Below, in pieces: positions 18,852 through 58,775 of a DNA stretch of 64,000 bases. Below the pieces are notes generated by a model. It made no database searches and was not told the DNA's origin. It worked only from the letters and a program-made list of their open reading frames with translations. Each line of letters opens with the position of its first letter. The stretch's first letter is position 1. Both the position numbers and the translations under genes were made by a program. The stretch is from an uncultured delta proteobacterium (GTDB taxonomy: Bacteria > Myxococcota_A > Polyangia > Polyangiales > Polyangiaceae), in the NCBI GenBank assembly GCA_963782055.1, contig CAWAIF010000002.1, positions 192,001-256,000 of the forward strand, written 5' to 3'.

Positions 18852-19231
18852 GCATGACGGTGCGCTCCTCCGATCGCAACGGCGGCGCCAGCCTGGTCGA
18901 TGTCCTCGACCGTGTCCTCGACAAGGGCCTCGTCGTCGCCGGCGACATTCGCGTCGCCCTGGCGGACGTGGAGCTGTTGACCATCCGCATCCGGCTGATG
19001 ATCTGCTCCATCGACAAGGCGCAGCAGGTGGGCCTGGACTGGTGGCGCCACGATCCGCACTTCGCGCCCGCTGGCAACAAGCTGCTCGGCGGCGACGCCG
19101 CGCTCCGGAAGCAGGTCGCCGCCCTCCAGCGACAGATCGCCAAGCTGGAGAAGGCCGCGACGTCCACCCGCCGCACCCGCTCATCGTCACCGAAGACATC
19201 GAAGAGAAAGAAGACGCGCCATGCCGATTGA
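18848..19231 (+). CDS. gvpJ: gas vesicle protein GvpJ
   Basis: [35 protein letters not shown]…[13 protein letters not shown]…DP plus coiled-coil tail, as in Bacillus-type GvpJ; ATGA overlap with the kinase. Confidence 0.85.
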
Positions 19232-19538
19232 ACGCAGCTCCGGCGGAACCAACCTGATCGACGTGCTGGACCGCGTCCTCGACAAGGGCATCGTGATCGA
19301 TGCCTGGCTGCGCGTACAGCTCGTGGGCATCGATCTGCTGACCGTGGAGGCCCGCGTCGTGGTCGCTTCGATCGACACGTACCTGAAGTACTCCGAGGCC
19401 GTCGGCGGGGCGGGCGCCGCCGCGCGGCCCACGCTTCCCGCCGCCCAGGTGCCGGAGTCCCTGCCGGCGCCGAAGCCGAAGCCGCGGACGCGTGCTCGGG
19501 CGAAGACCACCACGAAGACGAGGGCGCGCAGGACGTGA
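19221..19538 (+). CDS. gvpA: gas vesicle shell protein GvpA with basic C-terminal extension
   Basis: [52 protein letters not shown], the canonical GvpA core. Confidence 0.95.
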
Positions 19539-21682
19539 GCAGCCCCGCGGTCGTCGCCTCCGCCACCAGGAACGGCGCGCCCCCCACGACTCATCGGGGC
19601 GAGGCCAGCGGCCGCATGCTGCTCTTGCAGTCGCTGCTCGCGGCGGAGACGGTGACCGAGGCGGCGCGTCGCGTCGTCGAGTACCTCCACACACACGTCG
19701 GCGCGAGGCGGGTGGTCTACCTCGGGACCCACGACGCCGATGCCCGCCTGCAGGGGCTCGCCTCACGCGGCGTGGACGAAGCGCACGCGCTGGCGCTGGA
19801 GGTCGACCTGGACGTCGGCACTCACCCGCTGCTGCGCACGCTCTCGCCGCGGAGTCCCACTCCGGTCGAGATCCCCGACCTCGCGCGGCTCTTTCCGGGT
19901 GGTCGGCTGATGGTGACGCCGGTGCCGCTTCCCCTGACGCGGGTGGGGGAGCCCCTCGCGCTCCTGCTCACCGAGCCGCGCGCCGCGCTGGAGGAGGAGC
20001 TCGGCTGGGTGGCCTGCGTGCTGGGGCCGGAGCTGGCGCGCGCTCGCCGGCACGAGGATCTGAGCCGCGCCTACGCCGGAGCCCAGCGCGACGTGGCCCT
20101 GATGCGGGGGGTCCTCGATGCGGTGCCCGAGCCGGTGCTGCTTGCCGACGGCGACAGCAACGTGCTGCTCGCCAACTCTGACGCCGCGCTCTACTTCGCC
20201 TCGCCGGAGGAGGGGAGCAGCGAGGGGAGGCGGCGCGCGCTCGCGCTCAACCGGATGCTCCTCTCCGCCGTGCTCGCCAGCACCCGCAGCGCGGGGACGC
20301 AGATCCGGGAGGTGGCCGTCGTCGACCCGAGCGACGGGTCCGACCGCCTCTTCGAGCTGATCGCCGCGCACACCTCCACCGTGGCCGGCGAGGGCACCGT
20401 CGCGGTGCTCCGTAACGTGTCCGATCTCCACTCCGCGATGCGCGAGATCACCGAGAACTACCGTCGCCTGCGCGTGGCCGAGGCCGACGTCCGCGCCGAG
20501 CGCGACAGGCTGGACCTGATCATCGACTCGGTGGCCGACCCGATCATCGTCACCGGCATGCGGGGTGTGCCGCTGCGGATGAACCGCCCGGCGGAGGGGC
20601 TCCTCACGGCGGACCCCGACGCCTCCCCCGCGCGCGCGCAGCGCGTGCGCACCAACGACGCGCGCCTCTCCTCGCACGTGTCCAACGTCTTCTTCACGCC
20701 GGAGCCGCGCGTGCGCGGCGACCTCGACCTGCTCGACCCCGCCGGCATGCGCGACCTGCCGATGGAGGCGGTGAGCCGCAAGCTGATGTCGGCGCACGGG
20801 GAGGTGGCGGCGGTGGTCACCATCCTGCACGACCGCACCGAGGCGGAGGAGAAGCAGCGGCTCAACGAGCAGCTCGAGCAGGCGACGGCGCAGCTGGAGA
20901 AGAAGGTGCAGGAGGCGACGATCGAGCTCGTGAAGCAGAACGAGCTCCTGCGCCGCCAGCACATCCAGCTCGAGCAGGCCTCGAGCCTGAAGAGCCAGTT
21001 CCTCGCGACGATGTCGCACGAGTTCCGCACGCCGCTGAACGCCATCCTCGGCTACACGAGCATGCTGCTCGACAACATTTACGGGGCCCCGCCGCCGCGG
21101 CAGATCCGCTGCCTCGAGCGCGTGGACTCCAACGCCCGGCACCTGCTGGCGATCATCAACGACATCCTGGACATCTCCCGCATCGAGGCGGGCAGCATGC
21201 CGATCCACAGGTCCACGTTCGATGTCGGGAAGCTCTTGACGGAGGTCCTCTCCGAGGTGCGCCCGCTCGTGGCGCGCGACCGCGTCAAGGTGGAGCTCGC
21301 CGTCTCGTCGCGCCTGCCACGCCTGCGGACCGACCGCGCCAAGGTGAAGCAGATCCTGGTCAACCTGCTCTCCAACGCCTTCAAGTTCACCGCGGCCGGG
21401 ACCGTCGCCATCTCCGCGCGCCTCTCACCGCGAGGTCGGTGGTTGCACGTCGCCGTCGCCGACACCGGCGTGGGCGTCGCGCCGGAGGACGCCGAGGTGA
21501 TCTTCCAGGACTTCCGGCAAGCGGACAACTCCACCACCCGGCGCTTCGGCGGCACCGGGCTCGGCCTCGCCATCTCCCGGCGCCTGGCGGAGGTCCTCGG
21601 CGGCCGCATCAAGCTGGTCAGCGAGCTCGGGCAGGGCTCCACCTTCACCCTGATCCTCCCCCGGCGGCGGAGGTCGTCGTGA
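19535..21682 (+). CDS. cytoplasmic PAS-domain sensor histidine kinase
   Basis: Two PAS-like starts ([23 protein letters not shown]); [31 protein letters not shown]; no TM segment seen; GTGA overlap with gvpA. Confidence 0.92.
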
Positions 21683-22116
21683 AACGAGCGGCAGCGAGCG
21701 GCACCTCCCGGCGGCGTCGGGGTCGGTGCGTGCTGGTGGTCGACGACTTCGACGACAACCGCGAGATGTACGCCGAGTACCTCCAGCAGGCGGGGTACCA
21801 CGTGATCCAGGCCGCCGACGGGAAGTCCGCCGTTCAGCTCGCCACCGAGGCGCGCCCGGACCTCGTCGTCATGGACCTCTCCCTCCCGGTGATGGACGGC
21901 TGGGAGGCGACGCGCCTGTTGAAGGCCGACCCACGCACTCGCCGCATTCCGGTCATCGCCCTGACGGGGCACGCGCTCGCGGGGCACTCGCAGGGGGCGC
22001 GGGACGCGGGGTGCGACGAGTTTCTCACCAAACCATGCCTGCCGCGCGCCCTGGTCGACGCGGTGGAGCGGATGCTCGCGCCTCGCGGACGTGGGCGGAA
22101 AGGAGCGTCAGCATGA
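21679..22116 (+). CDS. single-domain response regulator (DivK/CheY-like)
   Basis: VLVVDD, MDLSLPVMDG, ALT, TKP; overlaps both neighbours by 4 nt. Confidence 0.9.
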   Translation: MKRAAASGTSRRRRGRCVLVVDDFDDNREMYAEYLQQAGYHVIQAADGKSAVQLATEARPDLVVMDLSLPVMDGWEATRLLKADPRTRRIPVIALTGHALAGHSQGARDAGCDEFLTKPCLPRALVDAVERMLAPRGRGRKGASA

Positions 22117-22985
22117 GCAGGAGAACGGCGCGCACCCCGGAGAAGGCCAAGGCGGTGCTGCCCGTCCGTCCCAGGGCGGAGTCGTGGCCCGAGGAAGCGA
22201 CGACGGCGAAGCACCGCGTGCTAAAAGAGCGCGGCGAAGCGCGCGGGCGCTACGTGTACTGCGTCATCGGCTCGACCGGCCACAAGACCTTCGGTCCCAT
22301 CGGCGTCGGCGTGGAGCCGGCGGAGGTCCACACCGTGCGCTTCAAGGACATCGCCGCCGTCACGTCGGACACGCCCATCGAGGTCCACGAGCCGACACGC
22401 CACAACATCCTGGCCCACGAGCGCGTGAACGAGGCGGTCATGCGGGAGCACACCGTCATCCCCATGTCCTTCGGCACCGTCTTCAAGACCGACGACGATA
22501 TCCTGGAGCTGCTCCGCTCCGCGTACGACGCGTTCAAGGACGTGCTCGTCAAGATGGAGGACAAGCTGGAGTACGGCCTCAAGGTGCTCTGGGACCGCGA
22601 CCAGATCGTCCACGCGCTGGAGCTGGAGGACGAGGACATCCGGCGCCTGCGCGCCGAGATCCTCTCCCAGAACGGGTCGACGTACTTCGCGCGCATGCAG
22701 TACGGGCGGCTCGTCGAGGCGGCCCTCGAGACGCGGTGCGAGCGCTACGTCCGCGAGATCTTCGACGAGCTCCGGCCGGTCTCCATCGCCTCGCGCGTGA
22801 ACAAGCCCATCGGTGACAGGATGATCATGAACGCCGCGTTCCTGGTGAGCCGCGAGCGGGAGGCGAAGTTCGACGCCCGCGTCAAGGCGCTCGGCGCCGC
22901 CTACGACAAGCTGACCTTCCGCTACACGGGACCCTGGCCGCCCTACAACTTCGTCAACATCCGGCTGAAGCTGGAGAAGGCGTGA
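22113..22985 (+). CDS. gvpF: gas vesicle protein GvpF (GvpL/F family)
   Basis: YVYCVI, AHERVNE, VIPMSFGTVF, NAAFLV, TGPWPPYNF; located just before gvpG. Confidence 0.88.
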   Translation: MSRRTARTPEKAKAVLPVRPRAESWPEEATTAKHRVLKERGEARGRYVYCVIGSTGHKTFGPIGVGVEPAEVHTVRFKDIAAVTSDTPIEVHEPTRHNILAHERVNEAVMREHTVIPMSFGTVFKTDDDILELLRSAYDAFKDVLVKMEDKLEYGLKVLWDRDQIVHALELEDEDIRRLRAEILSQNGSTYFARMQYGRLVEAALETRCERYVREIFDELRPVSIASRVNKPIGDRMIMNAAFLVSREREAKFDARVKALGAAYDKLTFRYTGPWPPYNFVNIRLKLEKA

Positions 22986-23320
22986 GCATGCTCGTCATCG
23001 ACAGGATGCTGGCCTCCGGTCTGGGGTTCGTGATGCGCCGCATCGCCGAGGCCGCCGACGCTGCGTCCGACCCGACCACCGCCTTGCACGCGGGGTTGCT
23101 GGACGCGCAGGCGAGCCTGGAGCGCAACGAGATCACCGAGGCGGAGTACGAAGCCATCGAGGCGGATCTGCTGGCCGAGCTGCACGAGCGACGGCGAAGC
23201 GAGCGGCCGGCCGTGCTCTCCCACGTGACCGTGGACGTGATCGAGACCCCGCCGGAAGTCGGCGAGAAAGGAGCGCACCATGCCCCGCCGAAGCGCAAGG
23301 CCCGCAAGCGCCGCGTCTGA
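22982..23320 (+). CDS. gvpG: gas vesicle protein GvpG
   Basis: GLGFVMRRIAEAAD…LERNEITEAEYEAIEADLLAEL pattern; position after gvpF. Confidence 0.8.
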   Translation: MSMLVIDRMLASGLGFVMRRIAEAADAASDPTTALHAGLLDAQASLERNEITEAEYEAIEADLLAELHERRRSERPAVLSHVTVDVIETPPEVGEKGAHHAPPKRKARKRRV

Positions 23321-24065
23321 CGCGGACGTCGCGACCTACCTCTACTGCGTGGTGGAGGCCCCGCGCATCGACCTCGCGGGCGTCCCGCGCGGCCTGCCCG
23401 GCGCAGGAAAGCCCCGCGCGGAGCCGCTGAAGCCCGGACGGTGGATGATCGTGTGCGACGCGCCGCTCGCCCGCTACGGGCCGGAGGCCATCGAGCGCGC
23501 CACGAGCGAGCTCCGGTGGGTGGCGACCGCGGCGGTCAAGCACTCCGAGGTGGTCTCCTTCTTCGCGCGCGATCTCCCCGTCGTGCCGATGAAGATGTTC
23601 ACACTCTTCTCCGACGACCGGCGCGCCACGCGGGCGCTGCTACGCAAGGGACAATCCATCGACCGTACCTTGAAGCACATTCGCGGCTGCGCCGAATGGG
23701 GCGTCCACATCCTCCCGGCGCCGCGTCGTGCTGCCGCGCGTCGCGCCCCGGCGCCGCGCAGCGGCCGCGCCTTCCTCGTTGCGAAGCGGGAGAAGCTCGC
23801 CGGGGCGCGTGACGATCGCGCTCACCAGCGCGCCGAGGCCCTGCGCGCGCTGGGGGATCTGGAGTCGCTGTCGCGCGCCGCGCAGATGCGCGAGGCGCAG
23901 GCCGCGACGGGACCGGTGGTGGACGGCGTCCTGCTGGTGCCGAACGCGGCGAAGGCGCGGCTCGCCGCGCGCTGCGACCGATGGCGCGAGCAGCTCCAGA
24001 AGCGGGGCCTGTCCCTCCGCGTGACCGGTCCCTGGCCCTGCTACCACTTCGTGGGGGCACGATGA
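23280..24065 (+). CDS. gvpL: gas vesicle protein GvpL (GvpL/F family)
   Basis: YLYCVV, HSEVV, VVPMKMFTLF, EWGV, SGRAFL, TGPWPCYHF. Confidence 0.85.
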   Translation: MPRRSARPASAASDADVATYLYCVVEAPRIDLAGVPRGLPGAGKPRAEPLKPGRWMIVCDAPLARYGPEAIERATSELRWVATAAVKHSEVVSFFARDLPVVPMKMFTLFSDDRRATRALLRKGQSIDRTLKHIRGCAEWGVHILPAPRRAAARRAPAPRSGRAFLVAKREKLAGARDDRAHQRAEALRALGDLESLSRAAQMREAQAATGPVVDGVLLVPNAAKARLAARCDRWREQLQKRGLSLRVTGPWPCYHFVGAR

Positions 24066-24274
24066 GCCCGGCGCGTGCCGCGCCACGCCGGCGGAGCGCC
24101 GCGGACCTCTCGCTCGCCCGCCAGGGGACCCTCCTCGACCTGCTGGATCACGTCCTCGACAAGGGCGTCGTGCTGCAGGGCGATCTGGTGATCTCCGTCG
24201 CCGACGTCGAGCTGGTCTACGTTCGCCTCTCGGCGCTGCTGTGCGGGATGTCATCGCTGGCGAGGAGGCGCTGA
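24062..24274 (+). CDS. gvpS: gas vesicle protein GvpS (GvpA-like family)
   Basis: LLDLLDHVLDKGVVLQGDLVISVADVELVYVRL; ATGA overlap. Confidence 0.8.
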   Translation: MSPARAAPRRRSAADLSLARQGTLLDLLDHVLDKGVVLQGDLVISVADVELVYVRLSALLCGMSSLARRR

Positions 24275-24897
24275 TGCTGGCCCTGGTCGCGCTCCTCCGC
24301 GCCGACGACGCCGAGCTCGCGCGCGCCCTCGGGTTCGGCGCGACGGTCGTGCGCGCGGCGTGCGTGGTGCACCGCACGGTTCGCCGCCCCGACGGGCCGA
24401 CGGCCGCGGCGGCGATCCGTCACGACCGTGCCGTGCGGCGGCTCATGTCGCGGGCCACCGCGGTGCTGCCGATGCGCCTCGGCGTCACCGTGAAGGACGC
24501 CGGCGCTCTCCCGGCGCTCCTCGGCTCCCATGACGGCGCCGTCGCCGCGCGCCTGGCGGCGGTGGAGGGCCGCGTGCAGATGACCCTCCGCGTCTACCGG
24601 GGCCCCGGCGCCGCGAGGCGCGTCACCGGAGGTCGGGGGACCCGGTACCTGGCGCGTCGCGGCGCGGAGACCGCCTTCGTCGCGCGCGCGCGCCAGGAGC
24701 TCGGAGCTGCGGTCGCCGACGAGGTGATCGAGCACCACTCCATCGAGCCGCTGCTGGCGAGCGTGTATCACCTGGTGGACAGGGGGCGCGCCGCGGCGTA
24801 CCGCGCCGGTGTCCGCCGGGTCGCGCGCGCGCACCCGGAGGTGCGCGTGGCGGCCAGCGGTCCGTGGGCCCCGTACGCCTTCTGCGCCCTGGAGTGA
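24274..24897 (+). CDS. third GvpL/GvpF-family protein
   Basis: HDRAVRRL, VLPMRLG, GTRYL, YHLV, SGPWAPYAF; TGATG coupling with GAGGAGG SD. Confidence 0.82.
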   Translation: MLALVALLRADDAELARALGFGATVVRAACVVHRTVRRPDGPTAAAAIRHDRAVRRLMSRATAVLPMRLGVTVKDAGALPALLGSHDGAVAARLAAVEGRVQMTLRVYRGPGAARRVTGGRGTRYLARRGAETAFVARARQELGAAVADEVIEHHSIEPLLASVYHLVDRGRAAAYRAGVRRVARAHPEVRVAASGPWAPYAFCALE

Positions 24898-24900
24898 CCG

Positions 24901-25254
24901 ATGGCGGCCCGGCAATCCACCCTCGTTCGCAAGGCCCGCAGGCGCGAGATCGACGCGCTGCGACACGAGGTCACGCGCAAGAAACGCGGCCGGCTGCGCA
25001 TCGACGCCGACCCCGGCGACGTGGAGCGCTCGCTGGCGCGCCTGGTGCTCTCGCTGGTAGAGCTGCTCCGCGAGCTGATGGAGCGCGAGGCCATCCGCCG
25101 GCTGGACGGCGGCGATCTCACGCCCGACGAGATCGAGGCGGTGGGGACGGCGCTGATGCGTCTGGAGAAGGCCGTGCGCACCCTCGCCCGGCGGTTCGGC
25201 CTCAAGCCGGGCGATCTCAACCTGGACCTCGGGCCGCTCGGCCGCCTGCGCTGA
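24901..25254 (+). CDS. gvpK: gas vesicle protein GvpK
   Basis: LARLVLSLVELLRELMEREAIRR…LNLDLGPLGRL signature. Confidence 0.92.
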   Translation: MAARQSTLVRKARRREIDALRHEVTRKKRGRLRIDADPGDVERSLARLVLSLVELLRELMEREAIRRLDGGDLTPDEIEAVGTALMRLEKAVRTLARRFGLKPGDLNLDLGPLGRLR

Positions 25255-25278
25255 CCGTCGTGGCGTGCGCGCACCCGC

Positions 25279-25293
25279 GTAGCGGAATGTCAC
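25279..25293 (+). promoter_or_regulatory. putative enhancer box 3
   Basis: GTAGC-GGAAT-GTCAC, with half-sites identical to box 1, 40 bp upstream of the sigma54 motif. Confidence 0.55.
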
Positions 25294-25333
25294 GATCCCC
25301 GCCCGTCGTCGGACTATCCCGGTCCGTGTAGCG

Positions 25334-25349
25334 AGGCACATGCATTGCA
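25334..25349 (+). promoter_or_regulatory. putative sigma54 promoter of the globin-kinase gene
   Basis: AGGCACA-TGCA-TTGCA with exact -24/-12 spacing, 15 bp before ATG 25365. Confidence 0.72.
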
Positions 25350-25364
25350 GCGGTCTCTCCGTCC

Positions 25365-27665
25365 ATGGTCCCTGCCGAAGCGGGTGAAGGTGCCGCGTGG
25401 ACGCCGCCGTCGAGGATGGACGGCTTCGAGCTCGTCGAGCTGCTGGGCGAAGGCGGCATGGGCCGCGTCTACCTCGCGCGGGAGCGCTCGCTCGACAGGC
25501 TGGTGGCGATCAAGTTCATGACGGTCGCCCCGACCATGCCCGGCGCCCGCGCCCGCTTCCGGGCCGAGGCGCGCGCGCTCGCACGGCTGAATCACCCCAA
25601 CGTGGTCGGGGTCTATCGCTTCAACGAGGTGGAGGGCAGGCCGTACATCGCCTACGAGTACGTGCGCGGCAAGAGCCTGGACCGAATCGCCAAGCCGATC
25701 CGGTGGACGGCGAGCCTGGTCATCGCGGCGTCGGTCGCGCGGGGCCTCGCTGCCGTGCATCGCGCCGGCCTGCTGCACAGAGACATCAAGCCGGCCAACG
25801 TGATGGTGGCCGCGACGGGCGCGGTGAAGCTGGTCGACTTCGGCCTGGCGCGTCTCGCCGATGCGGAGGGGCGCTGGAGTCCCGACAGCGAGGAGTCTCC
25901 GGAGGCCGCGCTGGCGCTGTCCTTCGACGATCTGGTCGAGGCCGGGGCCCACGCCTCCGCCGTGGCCCGCGGGTCGGCCGTGTCGCGTGGCATGCGAACG
26001 GCCTCCAACCTCGCCGTCGGGACCCCGCGCTACTGGGCCCCGGAGCAGTGGCTGGGCGGGGAGGCCGACGCGAAGAGCGACGTCTACGCGCTGGGTCTGG
26101 TGATCTACGAGATGGTCACCGGGACGGCGCCGTTCGCCGATGTGGCCGGGGACGATCTGATGCACGCCGTGCTGGAGGTGGGTGTGCCTCGCGTCCAGCA
26201 CGACTCCGTCCCGGAGGCCTTCGGCGCGATCATCGACCGCTGCCTCCGGCGTGACCCGCGCGAGCGGTGGGACACCGCCACCGATCTCGCCCGCGCGCTC
26301 CTCCAGCTCCAGCGCGTCTTCGTGGCCGCGACGCCGGAGGCGCTCACCCGACCGTTGAACGACGAGGCCGCAATCGTCGCGGCGTCGTGGTCGCGCCTCC
26401 TGCCGTGGCGCGCGGCGCTGATCGCGCGCGTCTACCGCGAACTCTTCGCGGCGCACCCGGAAGTCCGCGCGCTCTTCCCCCTGGATCTCGCCGCGCAGCA
26501 GGCGAAGCTCACCCACGCCCTCGATCTCACGTTGCAGGGACTCCACGAGCCCGACGCCGTGGCGCCGATGCTCCGGGAGCTGGGCAGCCGTCACGTCGAC
26601 TACCACGTCGAGCCGCGCCACCTGGAGATGCTGGGCAAGGCATTGCTGGACGCCCTGCCCGTCTTCGACCGCAAGTGGGACGAGGCGACACGCCAGGCGT
26701 GGAAGCACGGCTACACCTTCATCGCCGCCACGATGTGCGCCGGGATGGCGAGTCACACCGAGCCAGTCGCCATTCCCCGCACGCCACCGCCCGCCGGCTC
26801 CCCGCATCCGGCGCCCCTCGCGGTGATGCCACCCGCGCAGTACGCCTCCGACGGCAACGTGGTCTATGCGGAGCTGGGAAAGGGACCGCCGGCGCTGGTC
26901 TTGTTGCCCGGTCGTGTCACGCACCTGGAGATGACCTGGTCGCACCCCGCGCCCGTCTGGCTCCTCGCCCAGCTCGCCGCGTTCTCCCGCGTCGTGCTCC
27001 TCGACCTGCGCGGCACCGGCATGGCCGATCGCATCCCGGACCCGACGGTGGAGGACGGCGTGCAGGACATTCTCTCCGTCATGGACGCCGCGCACATCGA
27101 CCGCGCGGTGCTCGTCGGCGCGGGCGACGCCGGGCCGATCGCCGTGTCGGCCGCCGCCGCGCACCCCGATCGAACCGCCGCGCTGGTGCTGGTCGGGTCG
27201 ACGCCGCGGCCCGCCTGGGCAGAAGACTTCCCCTTCGGGCGCACGAGGGCGGCGTTCGACGAGGCGTACAAGGAAGCCGCGGAGCACTGGGGGACGGCCT
27301 CCCACGTCGCGCGGGAGAACCCGGCGGCGGCGCGTGACAGGACCTTCTGCGAGTGGCTCGCCTCCTACCAGCGCATCGCCGCGGGCCGGCGCCGGGCGCT
27401 CGCGCTGCTGCGCGTCGCCGAGGAGCCCGACGTGCGCGCGCTGCTCCCGGCGGTGCAGGCGCCCACGCTGGTGCTTCACCGGGTCGGCGATCCGGTCTTC
27501 CCCGGGGCCGTCGGTCGCTTCATCGCCGAGCGCGTGCCGCACGGGCGGTACCTGGAGCTGCCCGGCAGCGACCACTGCATCTTCGCCGGTGACAGCGCCG
27601 AGCTCGCCCGCGCCATCGAGCGCTTCGTGGCCGGCCTCTCGGCCACGGCCCCCGCCGGATGCTGA
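25365..27665 (+). CDS. Ser/Thr kinase - globin - alpha/beta-hydrolase-fold fusion protein
   Basis: Kinase motifs GEGGMG, AIK, HRDIKPAN, DFG, APE; globin VAASW…VYRELFAAHPEVRALF…QQAKL…LGSRH…AW; hydrolase fold DLRGTGMAD, GAGDAG, PTLVLH, GSDH. Confidence 0.88.
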   Translation: MVPAEAGEGAAWTPPSRMDGFELVELLGEGGMGRVYLARERSLDRLVAIKFMTVAPTMPGARARFRAEARALARLNHPNVVGVYRFNEVEGRPYIAYEYVRGKSLDRIAKPIRWTASLVIAASVARGLAAVHRAGLLHRDIKPANVMVAATGAVKLVDFGLARLADAEGRWSPDSEESPEAALALSFDDLVEAGAHASAVARGSAVSRGMRTASNLAVGTPRYWAPEQWLGGEADAKSDVYALGLVIYEMVTGTAPFADVAGDDLMHAVLEVGVPRVQHDSVPEAFGAIIDRCLRRDPRERWDTATDLARALLQLQRVFVAATPEALTRPLNDEAAIVAASWSRLLPWRAALIARVYRELFAAHPEVRALFPLDLAAQQAKLTHALDLTLQGLHEPDAVAPMLRELGSRHVDYHVEPRHLEMLGKALLDALPVFDRKWDEATRQAWKHGYTFIAATMCAGMASHTEPVAIPRTPPPAGSPHPAPLAVMPPAQYASDGNVVYAELGKGPPALVLLPGRVTHLEMTWSHPAPVWLLAQLAAFSRVVLLDLRGTGMADRIPDPTVEDGVQDILSVMDAAHIDRAVLVGAGDAGPIAVSAAAAHPDRTAALVLVGSTPRPAWAEDFPFGRTRAAFDEAYKEAAEHWGTASHVARENPAAARDRTFCEWLASYQRIAAGRRRALALLRVAEEPDVRALLPAVQAPTLVLHRVGDPVFPGAVGRFIAERVPHGRYLELPGSDHCIFAGDSAELARAIERFVAGLSATAPAGC

Positions 27666-27714
27666 GGCCGAGCTGGCGTCCCCTCGCCCCGGCCGATACT
27701 ATCCCTGAAGGGAT

Positions 27715-28122
27715 ATGTCTCGCCTCCGCTCGCCGCTCGCCGTCGTGCTCGTCGCATCGCTGCTTCTTCCCGTCGCCGCGCGCGCCGCGCCCCGCGTCCC
27801 GTACGTGGAGGGTACGCGAGTGCCGCCCGGCTACCACGTCACCTCACGCCCGCGCGTCGGGCTGGTGATCGTGGGGGGCATCCTGTGCCTCCTCTCTGCG
27901 CTGGGGGTAGGCGTCGGGGTGGACGGCGTCTCGCGCCGCGACGACACCGCCGAGGTAGCCGGGTTCGCCTTCGCCGGTCTCACCGCGGCGCCGGGGATTC
28001 CCCTGCTGATGGTGGGCCTGCTGAAGCCGAAGCACTACCTGGTCGCCGACCACGCGTGGCGCCTGCGCCTCGCCCCGGCGACCGCGGGTGTGCGGGGTGT
28101 GTCACTGACCTTGGAGTTCTAG
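27715..28122 (+). CDS. exported/membrane hypothetical protein
   Basis: Signal peptide (VAARA), two hydrophobic segments, C-terminal GVSLTLEF beta-strand-like end. Confidence 0.7.
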   Translation: MSRLRSPLAVVLVASLLLPVAARAAPRVPYVEGTRVPPGYHVTSRPRVGLVIVGGILCLLSALGVGVGVDGVSRRDDTAEVAGFAFAGLTAAPGIPLLMVGLLKPKHYLVADHAWRLRLAPATAGVRGVSLTLEF

Positions 28123-28124
28123 CG

Positions 28125-28164
28125 CCTCACCCCCCCCGCCCCCTCTCCCTGCGGGGGAGAGGGA
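28125..28164 (+). repeat. REP-like palindromic element, copy 1
   Basis: CCTCACCCCCCCCGCC followed by hairpin CCCTCTCCC-tgcgg-GGGAGAGGG. Confidence 0.7.
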
Positions 28165-28180
28165 GACGGGAGCGCGATGG

Positions 28181-28543
28181 TCACCGGCGCGTGGTGTGGA
28201 GGCCGACGTGGTTTCCCTCCGTGTCGGCGACGATGGCGTACAGGCCCATCTCCCCGATGTCGGTCTTGGGAACGACGACCGAGCCGCCCGCGGTGGTCAC
28301 GCGGCCGAGGGCGGCGTCCAGCTCCGGCGCGTCGAGGTACACCACGCTCCCGGGCCCGGGAGCGCGACGCGGGTCGGCGACGAGCGCGCCGCTCACGTCG
28401 GCGTTGAGGCGCCGGGCGAAGATGGCGTGCGGGACGCCGGCGAAGTCCTCCCGCTTGAGGGACACGCCGAGGACCTTCTCGTAGAAGCGGGCGGCGCGGT
28501 CGATGTCGGCGACGGGGATCTCGAACCAGTTGATGACGCTCAT
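28181..28543 (-). CDS. VOC/glyoxalase-family protein
   Basis: MSVINWFEIPVADIDRAARFY…DTEGNHVGL; AGAAGGAG SD. Confidence 0.92.
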   Translation of the reverse strand: MSVINWFEIPVADIDRAARFYEKVLGVSLKREDFAGVPHAIFARRLNADVSGALVADPRRAPGPGSVVYLDAPELDAALGRVTTAGGSVVVPKTDIGEMGLYAIVADTEGNHVGLHTTRR

Positions 28544-28619
28544 GGTGGCTCCTTCTCCTGCGGACCGCGACGGCGGCCCGACGAGAGGCACCCTAGCCCC
28601 GGGCGTTGACAGCCTTCTG

Positions 28620-29261
28620 TCAGGTTTGTTTGGTCTCCACCACCGCGTGCTCGATGCGGTCGAAGCGCAGCGGCAGGGGCTCCCCGCTCTCGGCCTCGTG
28701 TCCGAGCAGCACGATCATCGTGCGCTCCATGGTGGCGCCGGCGAGGCGCACGCGCCGCCGCTCCAGCTCGCCGTGCGAGTTGCGGTAGCGCACGGCGAGG
28801 ACGCTGCCCTCGAACCACGCCGACTCCACCGCGCGACGCACCGCAGGAGGCGGCGCCAGCACCGGCACCCCCACGAACCGGAGCCTGTCCATGTGGCCGA
28901 GCAGCTCGCGCTGCGCGGACGTGCCGAGCGCCGCGCGCACCTTGTCGAGCGCGCGCTGCAGCGCCTCCGGGAACGGGAGCGATCGCATCTCCACCGCGTG
29001 CCGGACGAGGCTCGCCAGCACCGCCGCCTCGCGCGCGGTGAAGTTGACGGGCGGGAGCGCGTAGCTCTTGTCGAGCGCGTAGCCCCCGCCGCGTCCACGG
29101 TCCGCCTGCACGGGGAGCGCCGCGTCGCGCAGCGTGTCCAGGTCGCGGTAGATGGTGCGCACCGTGACCCCGAACCGCTCCGCGAGCATCTCGGCCGTGA
29201 CGCCGGTGCGCCGCCCGCGCAGGTACTCGGCGATGGCAAAGAGGCGCGCCTGTCGTCGCAC
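28620..29261 (-). CDS. YafY-like HTH + WYL transcriptional regulator
   Basis: LAERFGVTVRTIYRDLDTL, GRGGGY, LPPVNFT, Y…RRV…RFDRI. Confidence 0.88.
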   Translation of the reverse strand: MRRQARLFAIAEYLRGRRTGVTAEMLAERFGVTVRTIYRDLDTLRDAALPVQADRGRGGGYALDKSYALPPVNFTAREAAVLASLVRHAVEMRSLPFPEALQRALDKVRAALGTSAQRELLGHMDRLRFVGVPVLAPPPAVRRAVESAWFEGSVLAVRYRNSHGELERRRVRLAGATMERTMIVLLGHEAESGEPLPLRFDRIEHAVVETKQT

Positions 29262-29423: not shown

Positions 29424-31052
29424 TCAGTAAACGGGCGGCTGCACCTTCAGCGAGAGCGGCGTGTTCGCCTGCGAGAAGACGTTGTCCAGCTCGCCGTCGA
29501 CGACGCGCATCGGGTCGTAGGCGTTCTCCCCCCAGGGCAGGTCGATGCGCATGTCGCCCAGCGCGGTCCTGTACGAGGGCTGCTTGCCGGACAGGAGCGC
29601 GAGCAGGAAGTCCGCCGTCGCCTCGCCGCCGCCCCACACGTACGAGGGCGATCCGTTGACCACGATCTCCAGGTTCCGGGAGCCGCCCGGCTTCATGCGC
29701 AGAAAGTCCTCGTGGTAGTAGTTGTACGAGAGGCAGCTGTTCACGAGCATGATCTGGTAGCGGTCGTTGAAGTTCTGCGGCCCGTACAGCGTCGGCTCCA
29801 GCGGCCCGTGGCCGAAGTGCGAGTGGCCGTTGTAGAGGAAGACGTCGCCGTACCAGAAGGCCTCCAGGTAGCGCCACTGGGCGTGCTGGCGCGCCTCGGG
29901 GGAGCCATCCTCGTAGCCGTAGAAGCTCCGCACCTCCACGGTGAGGTTCTTCGTCGTGCCGCCGTCGCTCACCACCACGGGCAGGTCCCAGTCGATCCAC
30001 CGCTCGGCGAGCTTGCTCATCACCTGCCGGCGCAGGTCGGCGATCTTCGCCTTGTCGTTGCCCACCTCCGGCGGGTAGCCCTTCTTGTCCAGCACCCAGC
30101 GGAACATGTCGTCGTAGGTGACGTTCTGCAGCTTCTGCCCGTCCACCCAGAAGTCGAGCAGCATGGTGAAGGGGTCCGTCTTCACCGGCCGGAAGTTGGG
30201 CTGGCCGTCCAGCATCCTGCGCAGGAAGCGCACCGCCTCCTGGCCGAGGATGTCGTCCGGGTCGTTCTCGTCGGTGTCGACGCCGGAGAAGGCGTACACG
30301 ACGAGGGTGGACCGGGAGTCGTCGTGCAGGGCGAAGAGGCGGTCGTACTCCGGCGAGAAGTCGTGGTTGGGGGTGTTCGCCGCGCCCAGCTTGGCGGTCA
30401 CCGGGGCGAACCAGCGGCCGGCCTCGCTCGGGCCGACGGCGCCGGGGTGCTTCGCAAGCTTCGCCTGCTCCGACTGCACGCGCGCCGCCTCGTCCTGCAC
30501 CAGCGTCTCGCAGGACGGGAGCGATGGCTGGAAGTGGTACCAGAGGGAGTCCACGTCGGTGGTGGTGTCGTCGGAGCAGTCCTGGATCAGCTCGCCCGGG
30601 TGGGCCGCGTAGTCATCCGCCAGCATCACGAAGTCGATCGCGCTGCGGTTGGCGAGCGTCCTGGTGACCACGGCCTTGTCGACGTAGTCGAAGGAGACCT
30701 TGAGCACCTGCCGCGTGACGGCCTGGGTGTCGGGGTCGAGGACGTCCACCAGGGCGCGCGTCCACTTGGAGGGGTCCAGGTTGGACTGCGCGCCGCGGTC
30801 GTCGAAGGCGACCTTGGTGTCGCGCAGCGCTCCGAGCGCCGACTTGATCTGCCGCGCGATGGCGAGCTGGATGTCGGAGTCGGAGGTGCCCGGGTCGACG
30901 TAGACGTACGAGGAGAAGGAAACCGGGCGCTCCACCGAGGTGGTGCCGGTGAGGTCCGACGACCCGGACGCGCCGTCGGACGGCGGGGCAGAGCAGGCGG
31001 CGGCGCCCGCGGCGAGGACAAGCACCCAGACCCAGCGTGACAGCGGCGACAT
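29424..31052 (-). CDS. lipoprotein with putative His/Cys (clan CD-like) peptidase domain
   Basis: AAA-C lipobox; C-terminal VFLYNGHS and IMLVNSC motifs 28 aa apart. Function inferred. Confidence 0.6.
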   Translation of the reverse strand: MSPLSRWVWVLVLAAGAAACSAPPSDGASGSSDLTGTTSVERPVSFSSYVYVDPGTSDSDIQLAIARQIKSALGALRDTKVAFDDRGAQSNLDPSKWTRALVDVLDPDTQAVTRQVLKVSFDYVDKAVVTRTLANRSAIDFVMLADDYAAHPGELIQDCSDDTTTDVDSLWYHFQPSLPSCETLVQDEAARVQSEQAKLAKHPGAVGPSEAGRWFAPVTAKLGAANTPNHDFSPEYDRLFALHDDSRSTLVVYAFSGVDTDENDPDDILGQEAVRFLRRMLDGQPNFRPVKTDPFTMLLDFWVDGQKLQNVTYDDMFRWVLDKKGYPPEVGNDKAKIADLRRQVMSKLAERWIDWDLPVVVSDGGTTKNLTVEVRSFYGYEDGSPEARQHAQWRYLEAFWYGDVFLYNGHSHFGHGPLEPTLYGPQNFNDRYQIMLVNSCLSYNYYHEDFLRMKPGGSRNLEIVVNGSPSYVWGGGEATADFLLALLSGKQPSYRTALGDMRIDLPWGENAYDPMRVVDGELDNVFSQANTPLSLKVQPPVY

Positions 31053-56545: not shown

Positions 56546-57493
56546 TCAGGCCACGGCGAGGACGTGCATGGACACCTGGTGGCCGGGGTCGAAGAGCACC
56601 TGCTCCGAGCGCAGGCCCGCCCTGGTGGCCATGGCGACGAAGCGCTCCGGTGACCACTTGTAGCAGTGCTCGGTGACGATGGGCTCGCCCGGCGCGAAAG
56701 TGAAGGTGTGATCCGCCACCGTCACACGCTCCGGATGGCGGCTGACGAGCTGCATCTCGATGCGGCTGGGGTCCGGCTGCCACTCGGCGCGGTGGGCGAA
56801 GTGCGCCAGCTCGAAGTCGCCGCCCGCCTCGCGGTTGATGCGATCGAGCAGGTTGCGGTTGAAGCGCGCCGTCGCCCCGGCCGGGTCGTCGTAGGCGCGC
56901 TCCAGCGTCTCGCGGTCCTTCGGTACGTCCACGCCGACGATGACGTGGCCGCCGGCGCCGGCGACGCTCGCGGTGCGCCGGAGCAGGGCGACGGCCTCGC
57001 CCGGCTCGAAGTTGCCGATGCTCGACCCCGGGAAGAAGACGACCGTCCGCCCGCCCTCCGGCGCGACGTGGCCGAGGTCCGGCAGCGGCCGGGAGTAGTC
57101 CAGCACCAGCGGCGTCACCTCCAGCCGCGGGTAGCGGGCGCGGAGCTCCTGCGCGGTGTCCTCCAGGTGACGCGCGGAGATGTCCACCGGCACGTAGCGC
57201 GCGAGGGAGGTCGCCCGATCGAGCACCAGCCGCGTCTTGTGGCTGCTGCCGCTGCCCAGCTCGACGAGCGTCGCCCCGGGGCCGATGACGTCGACCAGGG
57301 CGCCGACGTGCTCCTCCAGCAGCGACGTCTCCGCGCCTGTCAGGTAGTACTCCGGCTGGCGGCAGATCTCGTCGAAGAGGAGCGAGCCCTTCTTGTCGTA
57401 GAAGTACTTGCAGGGCAGCGTCTTCGGGGAGGACGCGAGACCTGCGAGGACGTCGAGGGCGAGCTGGCGCGTGTGCGGCGCTTCGAGCGTCAC
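56546..57493 (-). CDS. egtD: L-histidine N-alpha-methyltransferase
   Basis: KYFYD…LFDEIC…[37 protein letters not shown] overlap with egtB. Confidence 0.93.
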
Positions 57494-58737
57494 GTCCACC
57501 TCGCGAGGCGCACTCCCGTCATCTGCCAGCGGGTGTCCGGGGGGAAGAAGTTGCGGTAGCTCGCGCGGAGGTGATCCCTCGGTGAGAAGCACGACCCACC
57601 GCGGAGGACGAGCTGGTTGCACATGAACTTCCCATTGTACTCACCGAGCGCGCCATCGAAAGGGCGGAAGCGCGGGTAGGGCACGTAGGGGCTGGCGGTC
57701 CACTGCCAGGCGTCGCCGAACATCTGCCCGAGGCCCGCGGCAGGCGTGGCGCGCGCGGGATGGAAGCGCTCGCTCTCGACGAAGGTCCCCTCGACCGGGA
57801 GCGACGACGCGGCGAGCTCCCACTCGGCCTCCGTGGGGAGGCGCGCGCCCGACCACCGCGCGAAGGCGTCGGCCTCGTAGTAGCTGACGTGACAGACGGG
57901 GAGGTCGGGGTCGAGCGGCTCGAGACCGCGCATGGTCCAGAGGGAGGCGGCGCCAGCATCCCAGTAGAGCGGCGCGCGCCAGCCGTGCCGCCTGCACGCG
58001 TCCCAGCCGTCGGAGAGCCAGTGCGCAGGCTCCTCGTAGCCGCCGGCCTTCATGAAGGCGAGCCACTCGCCCTGCGTGACGAGGCGCGCGCCGAGCTCGA
58101 AGGGCTCCAGCCAGACCTTGTGCCGCGGCGTCTCGTTGTCGAAGGCAAACCCATCGCCAGCATGCCCGATCTCCACCAGGCCCCCCTGCAGCTTCACCAT
58201 CTCTTCCCCGCCTCTCCACGCCGTGGTGAGGGGGTCGGGGGGCGAGGAGGCGGTGAGGTACGCCACCCTCTGCGGGGCGAGGACGAGCGCGACGTCGGTG
58301 AGGAGGAGCTCCTGGTGTTGCTGCTCGTGGTGCATGCCGAGTTGGAGGATGGATGCCGCGCGCGGCTGCGCCGTTGCGAGCGCGGGCAGGCGCTCGGTCA
58401 CCTCGGCGTCGATGGCGGCGCGGTAGCGATGCACCTCCTCCAAAGACGGGCGCGTCAGCAGGGAGCGATCCCCGCGGGCTTGCCGCTCGCCGACGGCCTC
58501 GTAGTACGAGTTGAACACCCAGTCGAAGTGCGCGTCGTACGCGCGGCGGCCGTCGACCAGCGCCTCCAGCAGCATCTTCTCGAAGAACCAGGTGGTGTGC
58601 CCGAGGTGCCACTTGGTGGGGCTCGCCTCCGGCATGGCCTGCGCGAACTGGTCGTCGCGGGTGAGCCGAGCGGCGAGCGCGACGGTGCGCGCGCGGACGT
58701 CTCGGAAGCCTCGAAGGAGCGCGCCGAGATCTGCCAT
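57490..58737 (-). CDS. egtB: ergothioneine sulfoxide synthase
   Basis: [28 protein letters not shown] iron ligands, FDNE, EYNGKFM, YRNFF. Confidence 0.95.
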
Positions 58738-58775
58738 CACCGCATCCGCACCATCCGTGGCACGATAAGCCGCGC

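Follow-up and report, generated by a model that had tools for sequence, protein, structure and literature searches.

The window analysed here is a stretch of 64,000 nucleotides from an uncultured delta proteobacterium of the Polyangiaceae (contig CAWAIF010000002.1, positions 192,001 to 256,000), and its plus-strand gene at 25365..27665 encodes a Hanks-type Ser/Thr kinase, a globin and an alpha/beta-hydrolase in one chain. We conclude, with a probability of roughly 0.55, that this protein is a soluble kinase regulated by a haem ligand and that it probably signals to sigma54 activators of the FHA type. The gene is a single intact open reading frame (ORF) of 766 amino acids from the first ATG; in the public protein set it begins at Met18 (25416) and has 749 amino acids. 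Pfam finds the domains in the order kinase (Pkinase, E 1.7e-46), globin (Globin, residues 355-457, E 1e-11) and hydrolase (Abhydrolase_1, residues 509-740, E 2.7e-13), and third-position GC is equal over the three (0.92-0.93). There is no clear transmembrane segment, the highest 19-residue hydropathy being 1.52. The AlphaFold model of the whole protein reaches a mean predicted local distance difference test (pLDDT) of 87.4. Its whole-chain predicted template modelling score of 0.71 hints at packed domains and is not used as evidence, and a complex prediction of the kinase-globin part (residues 18-466, with haem) with the hydrolase (487-761) scores 0.00, which counts neither for nor against. 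The initial annotation of this gene had claimed a kinase, a globin and a hydrolase without its Ser, and all of these sequence claims hold.

The globin (residues 333-461; 26361..26747, plus strand) is a member of the F family with a 3/3 fold according to Pfam, alignment and model, which settles the question, raised with the first description, of whether the middle domain would be predicted as a globin at all. Its best sequence matches are Hell's Gate globin I (HGbI) and HGbRL (E 6e-14 and 1e-14). Alignment to both confirms the proposed haem pocket with Tyr357 at B10 (codon at 26433), Phe371 at CD1 (26475), Gln378 at E7 (26496) and His410, within LGSRH, at F8 (26592), and adds Lys381 at E10 and Leu382 at E11. 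Folded together with the last kinase helix, the globin is modelled at pLDDT 89.8 and matches neuroglobin, flavohaemoglobin and thermoglobin with Z scores of 17-18.5 (E. coli flavohaemoglobin: Z 18.0, root-mean-square deviation (rmsd) 2.0, 132 aligned residues). The five globin domains of globin-coupled sensors that were listed score 12.8-13.5, 4-5 units under the top F-type globins. Neither a globin-coupled sensor nor a protoglobin occurs among 32 PDB sequence hits, and Pfam gives no protoglobin match. The earlier designation as a flavohemoglobin-type globin is borne out in this sense: the domain belongs to the F family and not to the S family of the classical globin-coupled sensors. The flavohaemoglobin profile NF009805 is matched only over positions 20-133 of 399, with 41 bits versus 432, and the Pfam scan of the protein detects no FAD/NAD reductase domain. 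Lys381 and Leu382 are as in HGbRL, but HGbI has the same Lys, so that it is not diagnostic of the site-swapped type. Pro401 of the EF loop aligns with the Pro of HGbI and shows at least 90% conservation over 22 rows, and the monomer model has a break between helix E and helix F. From alignment and model, a normal fold is more likely for this globin than a site-swapped one.

Conservation of the pocket extends over the whole family, for which we assembled 105 distinct kinase-globin proteins after removal of duplicates, 67 of them with a hydrolase; many of the remaining ones are cut by contig ends. Identity to the window protein is only about 31-49%, and still B10 Tyr is present in 102/105, CD1 Phe in 101/105, E7 Gln in 98/105 and F8 His in 102/102. 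Position E10 is Lys in 86 and Met in 15 of the 105. Because the pocket is conserved, we predict that the globin very probably binds haem. The only other globin-domain gene of the source genome (C3:4383116-4383640; L047:5114-5623) apparently lacks the proximal His and may therefore not bind haem. Long proteins that consist of globin domains in series, as many as 14 within 2461 amino acids, were also encountered (P0008, P0010, P0013 and P0024).

The kinase (residues 19-316; 25419..26312, plus strand) is as intact as first described. It carries the Gly loop GEGGMG at 28-33, the VAIK Lys K50 (25512), the helix-C Glu E68, HRD at 138-140 (25776-25784), DFG at 158-160 (25836-25844) and APE at 225-227, and thus all motifs that define a Hanks-type kinase of the RD class. 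PknB is the best Foldseek match of its model (1mru: Z 30.6, rmsd 2.0, 252 aligned residues). It does not belong to the PASTA kinases of the Stk1/PknB type, as NF033483 scores 226 bits where 450 would be needed and Pfam finds no PASTA domain. In the family the catalytic Lys is kept in 65/72 rows and the catalytic Asp in 65/75, the misses being mostly gaps of truncated fragments, and the other motifs are likewise kept except in fragments cut at the N-terminus. The activation segment (residues 166-215; 25860..26009, plus strand) is long and predicted to be disordered (pLDDT <50). Its median length from DFG to GTP is 53 amino acids across the family. The alignment column of Thr212 holds Thr in 79/97 relatives and Ser in 9/97, and a Thr lies close to the end of the segment in 84/87. 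This pattern makes Thr212 the likely site of autophosphorylation and FHA docking.

The combination of kinase and globin is recurrent and, as far as the searches reach, centred on the myxobacteria. A first protein search returned two other three-domain proteins among six matches. In 301 genomes of the order, the 20 top-ranked matches that were fetched contain 19 kinase-globin genes from 17 genomes, one with a degraded kinase. Among the best 150 matches in a library of 1.84 billion proteins, 65 of the 149 non-self matches are kinase-globin proteins, 38 of them with a hydrolase. A GTDB pattern scan with a six-row alignment yields 67 loci, of which 22 are kinase-globin genes; all 22 are from Myxococcota, with Polyangiaceae including Minicystis rosea, Kofleriaceae, Nannocystis and others as hosts. 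A search of 401 genomes across the phylum, with eight candidates scored per genome, gives at least four strong matches of kinase-globin length. Cultured members are found in Sandaracinus amylolyticus (AKF03609.1) and Minicystis rosea DSM 24000. The former is annotated only as 'alpha/beta fold hydrolase' or 'Ser/Thr kinase'; automatic names from the Joint Genome Institute (JGI) give the three domains for some other members. The distribution is patchy, and the fusion is not found in either of the two genomes of the same genus as the source. Among sequencing runs, a search listed no RNA data set with the gene and, with a small share, a single DNA run.

In a FastTree phylogeny of 165 kinase domains, 85 of the 87 globin kinases fall into one clade with support of 0.92, which contains none of the 69 plain kinases. 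Only two globin kinases fall elsewhere, a degraded copy and P0140, whose kinase and globin both lie outside the myxobacterial clades and which apparently represents a second, independent fusion. Of the 100 fused globins in a 273-globin tree, 98 stand on one side of a branch with support of 0.975. Seven other rows group with them, including some edge fragments and the second globin of the source genome; not all of these were inspected. Since each domain forms essentially one clade, kinase and globin appear to have been mostly inherited together; the deep nodes within the clades are weak, so no order of events is inferred. The spacing between the two domains is also constrained, with a median of 56 residues from kinase Arg301 to globin B10 (range 52-94; 52-60 in 91/104). 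The C-terminal part varies. Some members stop shortly past the globin, others continue with NB-ARC and TPR domains (shown for P0092, with L074:6570-10478 as its sister in the kinase tree), and P0130 and L044:3957-8225 (Polyangium sp. 15x6) continue with a cyclic-nucleotide-binding domain and a class V aminotransferase. As it persists with such different C-termini, kinase-globin represents the fixed core of the family. Five kinase-hydrolases without a globin sit inside the globin-kinase clade (P0112, P0116, P0128, L232:3273-5435 and L043:2154-7862). In L043, globin-bearing and globin-free paralogues stand in tandem, and P0112 and P0116 retain the Ser of the hydrolase.

The initial annotation had proposed a kinase regulated by a gas bound to haem. 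The support that this proposal has gained is comparative, in that the pocket is conserved, kinase and globin are co-inherited and their spacing is nearly constant, and on these grounds we put regulation of the kinase by the haem state at somewhat better than even odds. Sensing of micro-oxic O2, of NO or of redox state would be compatible inputs. In the mechanism that we propose, His410 would bind haem, and Tyr357 and Gln378 would stabilise the bound gas. A change of ligand (O2, NO or CO) or of the redox state of the iron would then switch the kinase. Movement of the globin would be transmitted through the short junction to the kinase C-lobe and would alter autophosphorylation of the long activation segment at Thr212. 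The resulting phosphothreonine would recruit an FHA-type activator and change transcription, plausibly including that of stand-alone globins. The hydrolase would be the remnant of a LipJ module, acting now without catalysis as a scaffold or as a second pocket for a small molecule. Elements of this scheme have precedents in the literature: passages of PMC4476040 describe very tight O2 binding by HGbI, the nearest relative with a single domain, and, in HGbRL, a shift of loop CE and of helix E that the ligand drives, and passages of PMC6213207 describe activation-loop phosphorylation and FHA recognition.

The assignment of the output relies on the neighbourhood of the family. Of 45 distinct loci, 19 have a sigma54-type AAA+ activator within 1.1 kb and 23 have one within 5 kb. 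For the 25 loci with both flanks longer than 2.5 kb the numbers are 9 and 13, and among the loci found after the pattern had been noticed an activator is within 1.1 kb in 9/26. As a control, activators occur near 2/83 (1.1 kb) and 3/83 (5 kb) kinases of the source genome; a looser method counts an activator within 1.5 kb for 8/140 kinases. A clear Pfam FHA domain is present in 12 of the 27 neighbouring activators. Stand-alone globins lie beside 9/45 kinase-globin loci and form their own clade in the globin tree. They have B10 Tyr and E7 Gln with Met at E10 (L027:7977-8543, L035:6738-7241, L036:8334-9053, L093:8059-8532 and five more). In Myxococcus xanthus the globin His kinase NmpU is proposed to control the sigma54 activator NmpR, as part of PMC6211767 describes, so the logic from globin kinase to sigma54 activator has a local precedent, with other chemistry.

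Several observations weigh against the conclusion of a haem-regulated kinase with an FHA-type activator as output. The 15 remaining activators of the 27 make up a clade that lacks GAFTGA and shows only an FHA-like start, 14 of them without a Pfam FHA match. This clade is present in 49/301 genomes; of 20 of its loci that have no fused kinase, 16 show the activator near an ordinary kinase. We therefore rejected a globin-specific link; adjacency hints at the likely output of the kinase, though not of the globin kinases in particular. The window copy itself has no stand-alone globin beside it, its nearest activator is 8.7 kb off and of the receiver type, and the best match of the source genome to the GAFTGA-less clade is a truncated, far-off fragment on another contig (C3:6952182-6953117). 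L149, the nearest relative with DNA, has no activator in its 5.1 kb downstream. The loci are related and hence not independent, and the control is drawn from one genome. The five globin-free kinases of the clade, together with one whose globin has decayed, indicate that the globin is dispensable in some lineages. Finally, the junction between kinase and globin is of low confidence (block mean pLDDT 61; <50 in a second model), so that the models do not demonstrate mechanical coupling. Weighing these points, we give an activator as output an even chance for the family and a lower one for the window copy, because the latter has no such neighbour.

On the supporting side, six of the same 20 loci without a fused kinase show a split arrangement of activator and one or two stand-alone globins, four of them with a separate kinase, so that the three parts also occur unfused. 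GAFTGA-less AAA+ activators with a divergent FHA-like start include L026:2717-4201, L030:8226-9722 and L279-L298. A more comprehensive scheme would be a dedicated myxobacterial pathway from haem gas to Ser/Thr phosphorylation, in which the globin gates the kinase, the kinase acts on FHA-type AAA+ activators including those without GAFTGA, these control the stand-alone globins, and the dead LipJ hydrolase provides a second input. We put this forward tentatively, at odds clearly below even.

A Pro-rich linker (26760..26828, plus strand; pLDDT <50 at residues 467-474) leads from the globin to the hydrolase (residues 489-757; 26829..27635, plus strand), which is of the LipJ type (NCBIfam NF058673.1, E 2.4e-43, profile positions 6-288 of 449). 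LipJ is listed as an esterase in one part of PMC10865251. The initial annotation had noted an elbow GAGDAG (27117-27134) without Ser and a kept His in GSDH. Alignment with KAI2 and BpoC confirms both: Gly587 (27123-27125) stands at the nucleophile position where relatives have Ser, and Asp709 (27489) and His737 (27573-27575) are kept. We rejected Asp588 as a nucleophile of the epoxide-hydrolase type, as it aligns one residue past the elbow. In the family the nucleophile is Ser in only 10/66 and Gly in 48/66 (12 and 47 of 67 in a second alignment); L044 and P0130 were left out of the 66, their weak match to the hydrolase profile being doubtful (L044 is in the training set, and Pfam gives no match). 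Asp is kept in 58/65 and His in 59/65. Loss of Ser is not peculiar to the globin fusions, since a third of the globin-free relatives also lack it (Ser in 47/71, absent in 24/71).

In globin-free relatives of the LipJ type, the fusion partners are class III cyclases or DNA-binding domains of the SARP/OmpR or AraC kind. The window protein ends about 10 residues past the hydrolase and has no class III cyclase domain. A tail of more than 90 residues is present in 29/48 family members. In the one longer member examined, P0014, 28 of 30 atlas matches are to cyclases (0.94), and the LipJ match reaches profile position 439 of 449; by eye, the long tails lack the metal-binding motifs of class III cyclases. 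We read P0014 from its sequence as ending in a decayed cyclase, and both enzyme activities of the LipJ module as largely lost in the kinase-globin-hydrolase family. Of the 'catalytically dead ligand-binding domain' in the initial annotation, the first half stands as far as a serine esterase is meant; ligand binding we only infer.

This history of the hydrolase bears on what the protein senses. Globin and hydrolase pocket could together recognise a larger ligand, such as a lipid, a fatty acid or an azole-sized molecule, rather than a gas, with the kinase integrating the signal. The module derives from a lipase-like LipJ that lost Ser and kept Asp and His, and F-family globins bind ligands as large as econazole or phospholipid, as passages of PMC4476040 describe. 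We consider this unlikely, as the polar residues with which HGbI binds O2, B10 Tyr and E7 Gln, are almost invariant and some members end soon past the globin or carry other C-termini. It is also unlikely, and slightly more so, that the globin is a tethered effector or protective domain that scavenges NO or buffers O2 while the kinase is regulated otherwise and without allosteric coupling. Such a domain would have no reductase to recycle its haem, would stand in chains whose kinase and globin clades match and whose spacing is constrained, and would duplicate the stand-alone globins already encoded beside some of the loci; in its favour are the flavohaemoglobin-type pocket, the poorly ordered junction in the models and the large number of myxobacterial kinases (184 kinase ORFs in the source genome).

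A further alternative arises from the local context. The window carries a gas-vesicle cluster at 18872-25254 with gvpA/J-, F/L-, G- and K-type genes, encoding three GvpA-family proteins, three GvpL/F, GvpG and GvpK. A PAS His kinase and a receiver break it up, and ahead of it lie a hybrid His kinase and an NtrC-type activator. The kinase-globin gene starts 110 bp past gvpK, in the same orientation and without a terminator-like site in between, and a promoter and terminator scan over 24800-28300 found nothing. The initial annotation had named Gvp proteins or the relay as possible substrates, so that in the source genome the kinase would control gas-vesicle assembly or the two-component relay of the cluster and couple oxygen to buoyancy. 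Both gvpK and the fusion are not found in the two same-genus genomes and may have arrived together. The comparison does not bear this out and makes it improbable: none of the 45 homologue loci has a match to the window Gvp proteins, gvpK occurs in 7/301 genomes of the order with no kinase or globin within 1.5 kb at the five other gvpK loci, and in the two genomes that have both, 7.6 and 2.9 Mb separate the one from the other. Genome G123 is included in the 301-genome tallies and in the seven gvpK genomes, and its locus is outside those analysed. Least probable of all is a hydrolase still active through a Ser-free His-Asp dyad, with the globin supplying O2 or reporting product: cofactor-free dioxygenases of the alpha/beta-hydrolase fold do use such a dyad without serine, and roughly 90% of members retain His737 and Asp709, but the nucleophile position is variable (G, S, Q, F, I or C), Asp or His is replaced in some, and no such dioxygenase appears among the 60 sequence hits and 50 fold matches listed.

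The window contains four more Ser/Thr kinases. Downstream of the kinase-globin gene follow a glyoxalase-fold gene with an HTH-WYL regulator (28181-29261) and a secreted-looking protein of 542 amino acids with no Pfam match (29424-31052). An EgtD/EgtB-like pair at 56549-58740 we take to serve ergothioneine synthesis.

The dedicated pathway from haem gas to Ser/Thr phosphorylation, if it exists, would parallel the NmpU-NmpR oxygen pathway with Ser/Thr chemistry and give globin sensors a fresh class of output. With a flavohaemoglobin-type globin wired to a Hanks kinase, O2, NO or redox state would gain a new way to influence Ser/Thr phosphorylation, and some of the many orphan myxobacterial kinases would have a named input. 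As candidates for the substrate and for a target globin are encoded next to the fusion in S. amylolyticus (AKF03609.1) and M. rosea DSM 24000, the proposal is directly testable there. We found no description of a globin-Ser/Thr kinase fusion in the open full-text literature, while subscription reviews or supplements on bacterial globins or the myxobacterial kinome may list the architecture; a literature search on the pseudo-hydrolase and a protein atlas search with residues 280-620 gave nothing and no usable match, respectively.

Characterised globin sensors are known to use S-family globins, with chemoreceptors, cyclases, phosphodiesterases or His kinases as outputs. The window protein resembles these globin-coupled sensors (the His kinases AfGcHK and NmpU, HemAT, DosC and BpeGReg) in the fusion of a globin to a signalling output, but here the output is a Hanks kinase and the F-family globin lies C-terminal to it. 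PknB-type kinases share the RD fold and motifs, and in the family the neighbourhood of FHA activators recalls the myxobacterial pairs of kinase and FHA-type sigma54 activator that Jelsbak et al. 2005 reportedly described. The window kinase differs in being soluble, with no PASTA domain or membrane anchor, in its activation segment of about 50 residues and in its predicted built-in haem domain. With HGbI (3s1i/3ubc) and HGbRL (3wfw) the globin has B10 Tyr, E7 Gln, E10 Lys, E11 Leu and F8 His in common. HGbRL is, in passages of PMC4476040, a putative F-type sensor fused to Roadblock/LC7 and site-swapped with Asp at the EF-loop Pro, whereas the window globin has a kinase as partner and keeps Pro401 like HGbI. 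Flavohaemoglobin (Hmp) has the same globin type and distal pocket together with the FAD/NAD(P)H reductase that the window protein lacks. Mycobacterial LipJ (Rv1900c) and the hydrolase-cyclase and hydrolase-regulator fusions share the hydrolase subtype, but in the family the module is appended to kinase-globin, mostly lacks the Ser nucleophile and has a decayed cyclase or, as in the window copy, none. We conclude that the window protein probably works like a globin-coupled sensor, yet stands outside the classical S-family sensors, the flavohaemoglobins and LipJ, because the type and position of its globin differ, it has no reductase, and it has neither the cyclase nor the Ser.

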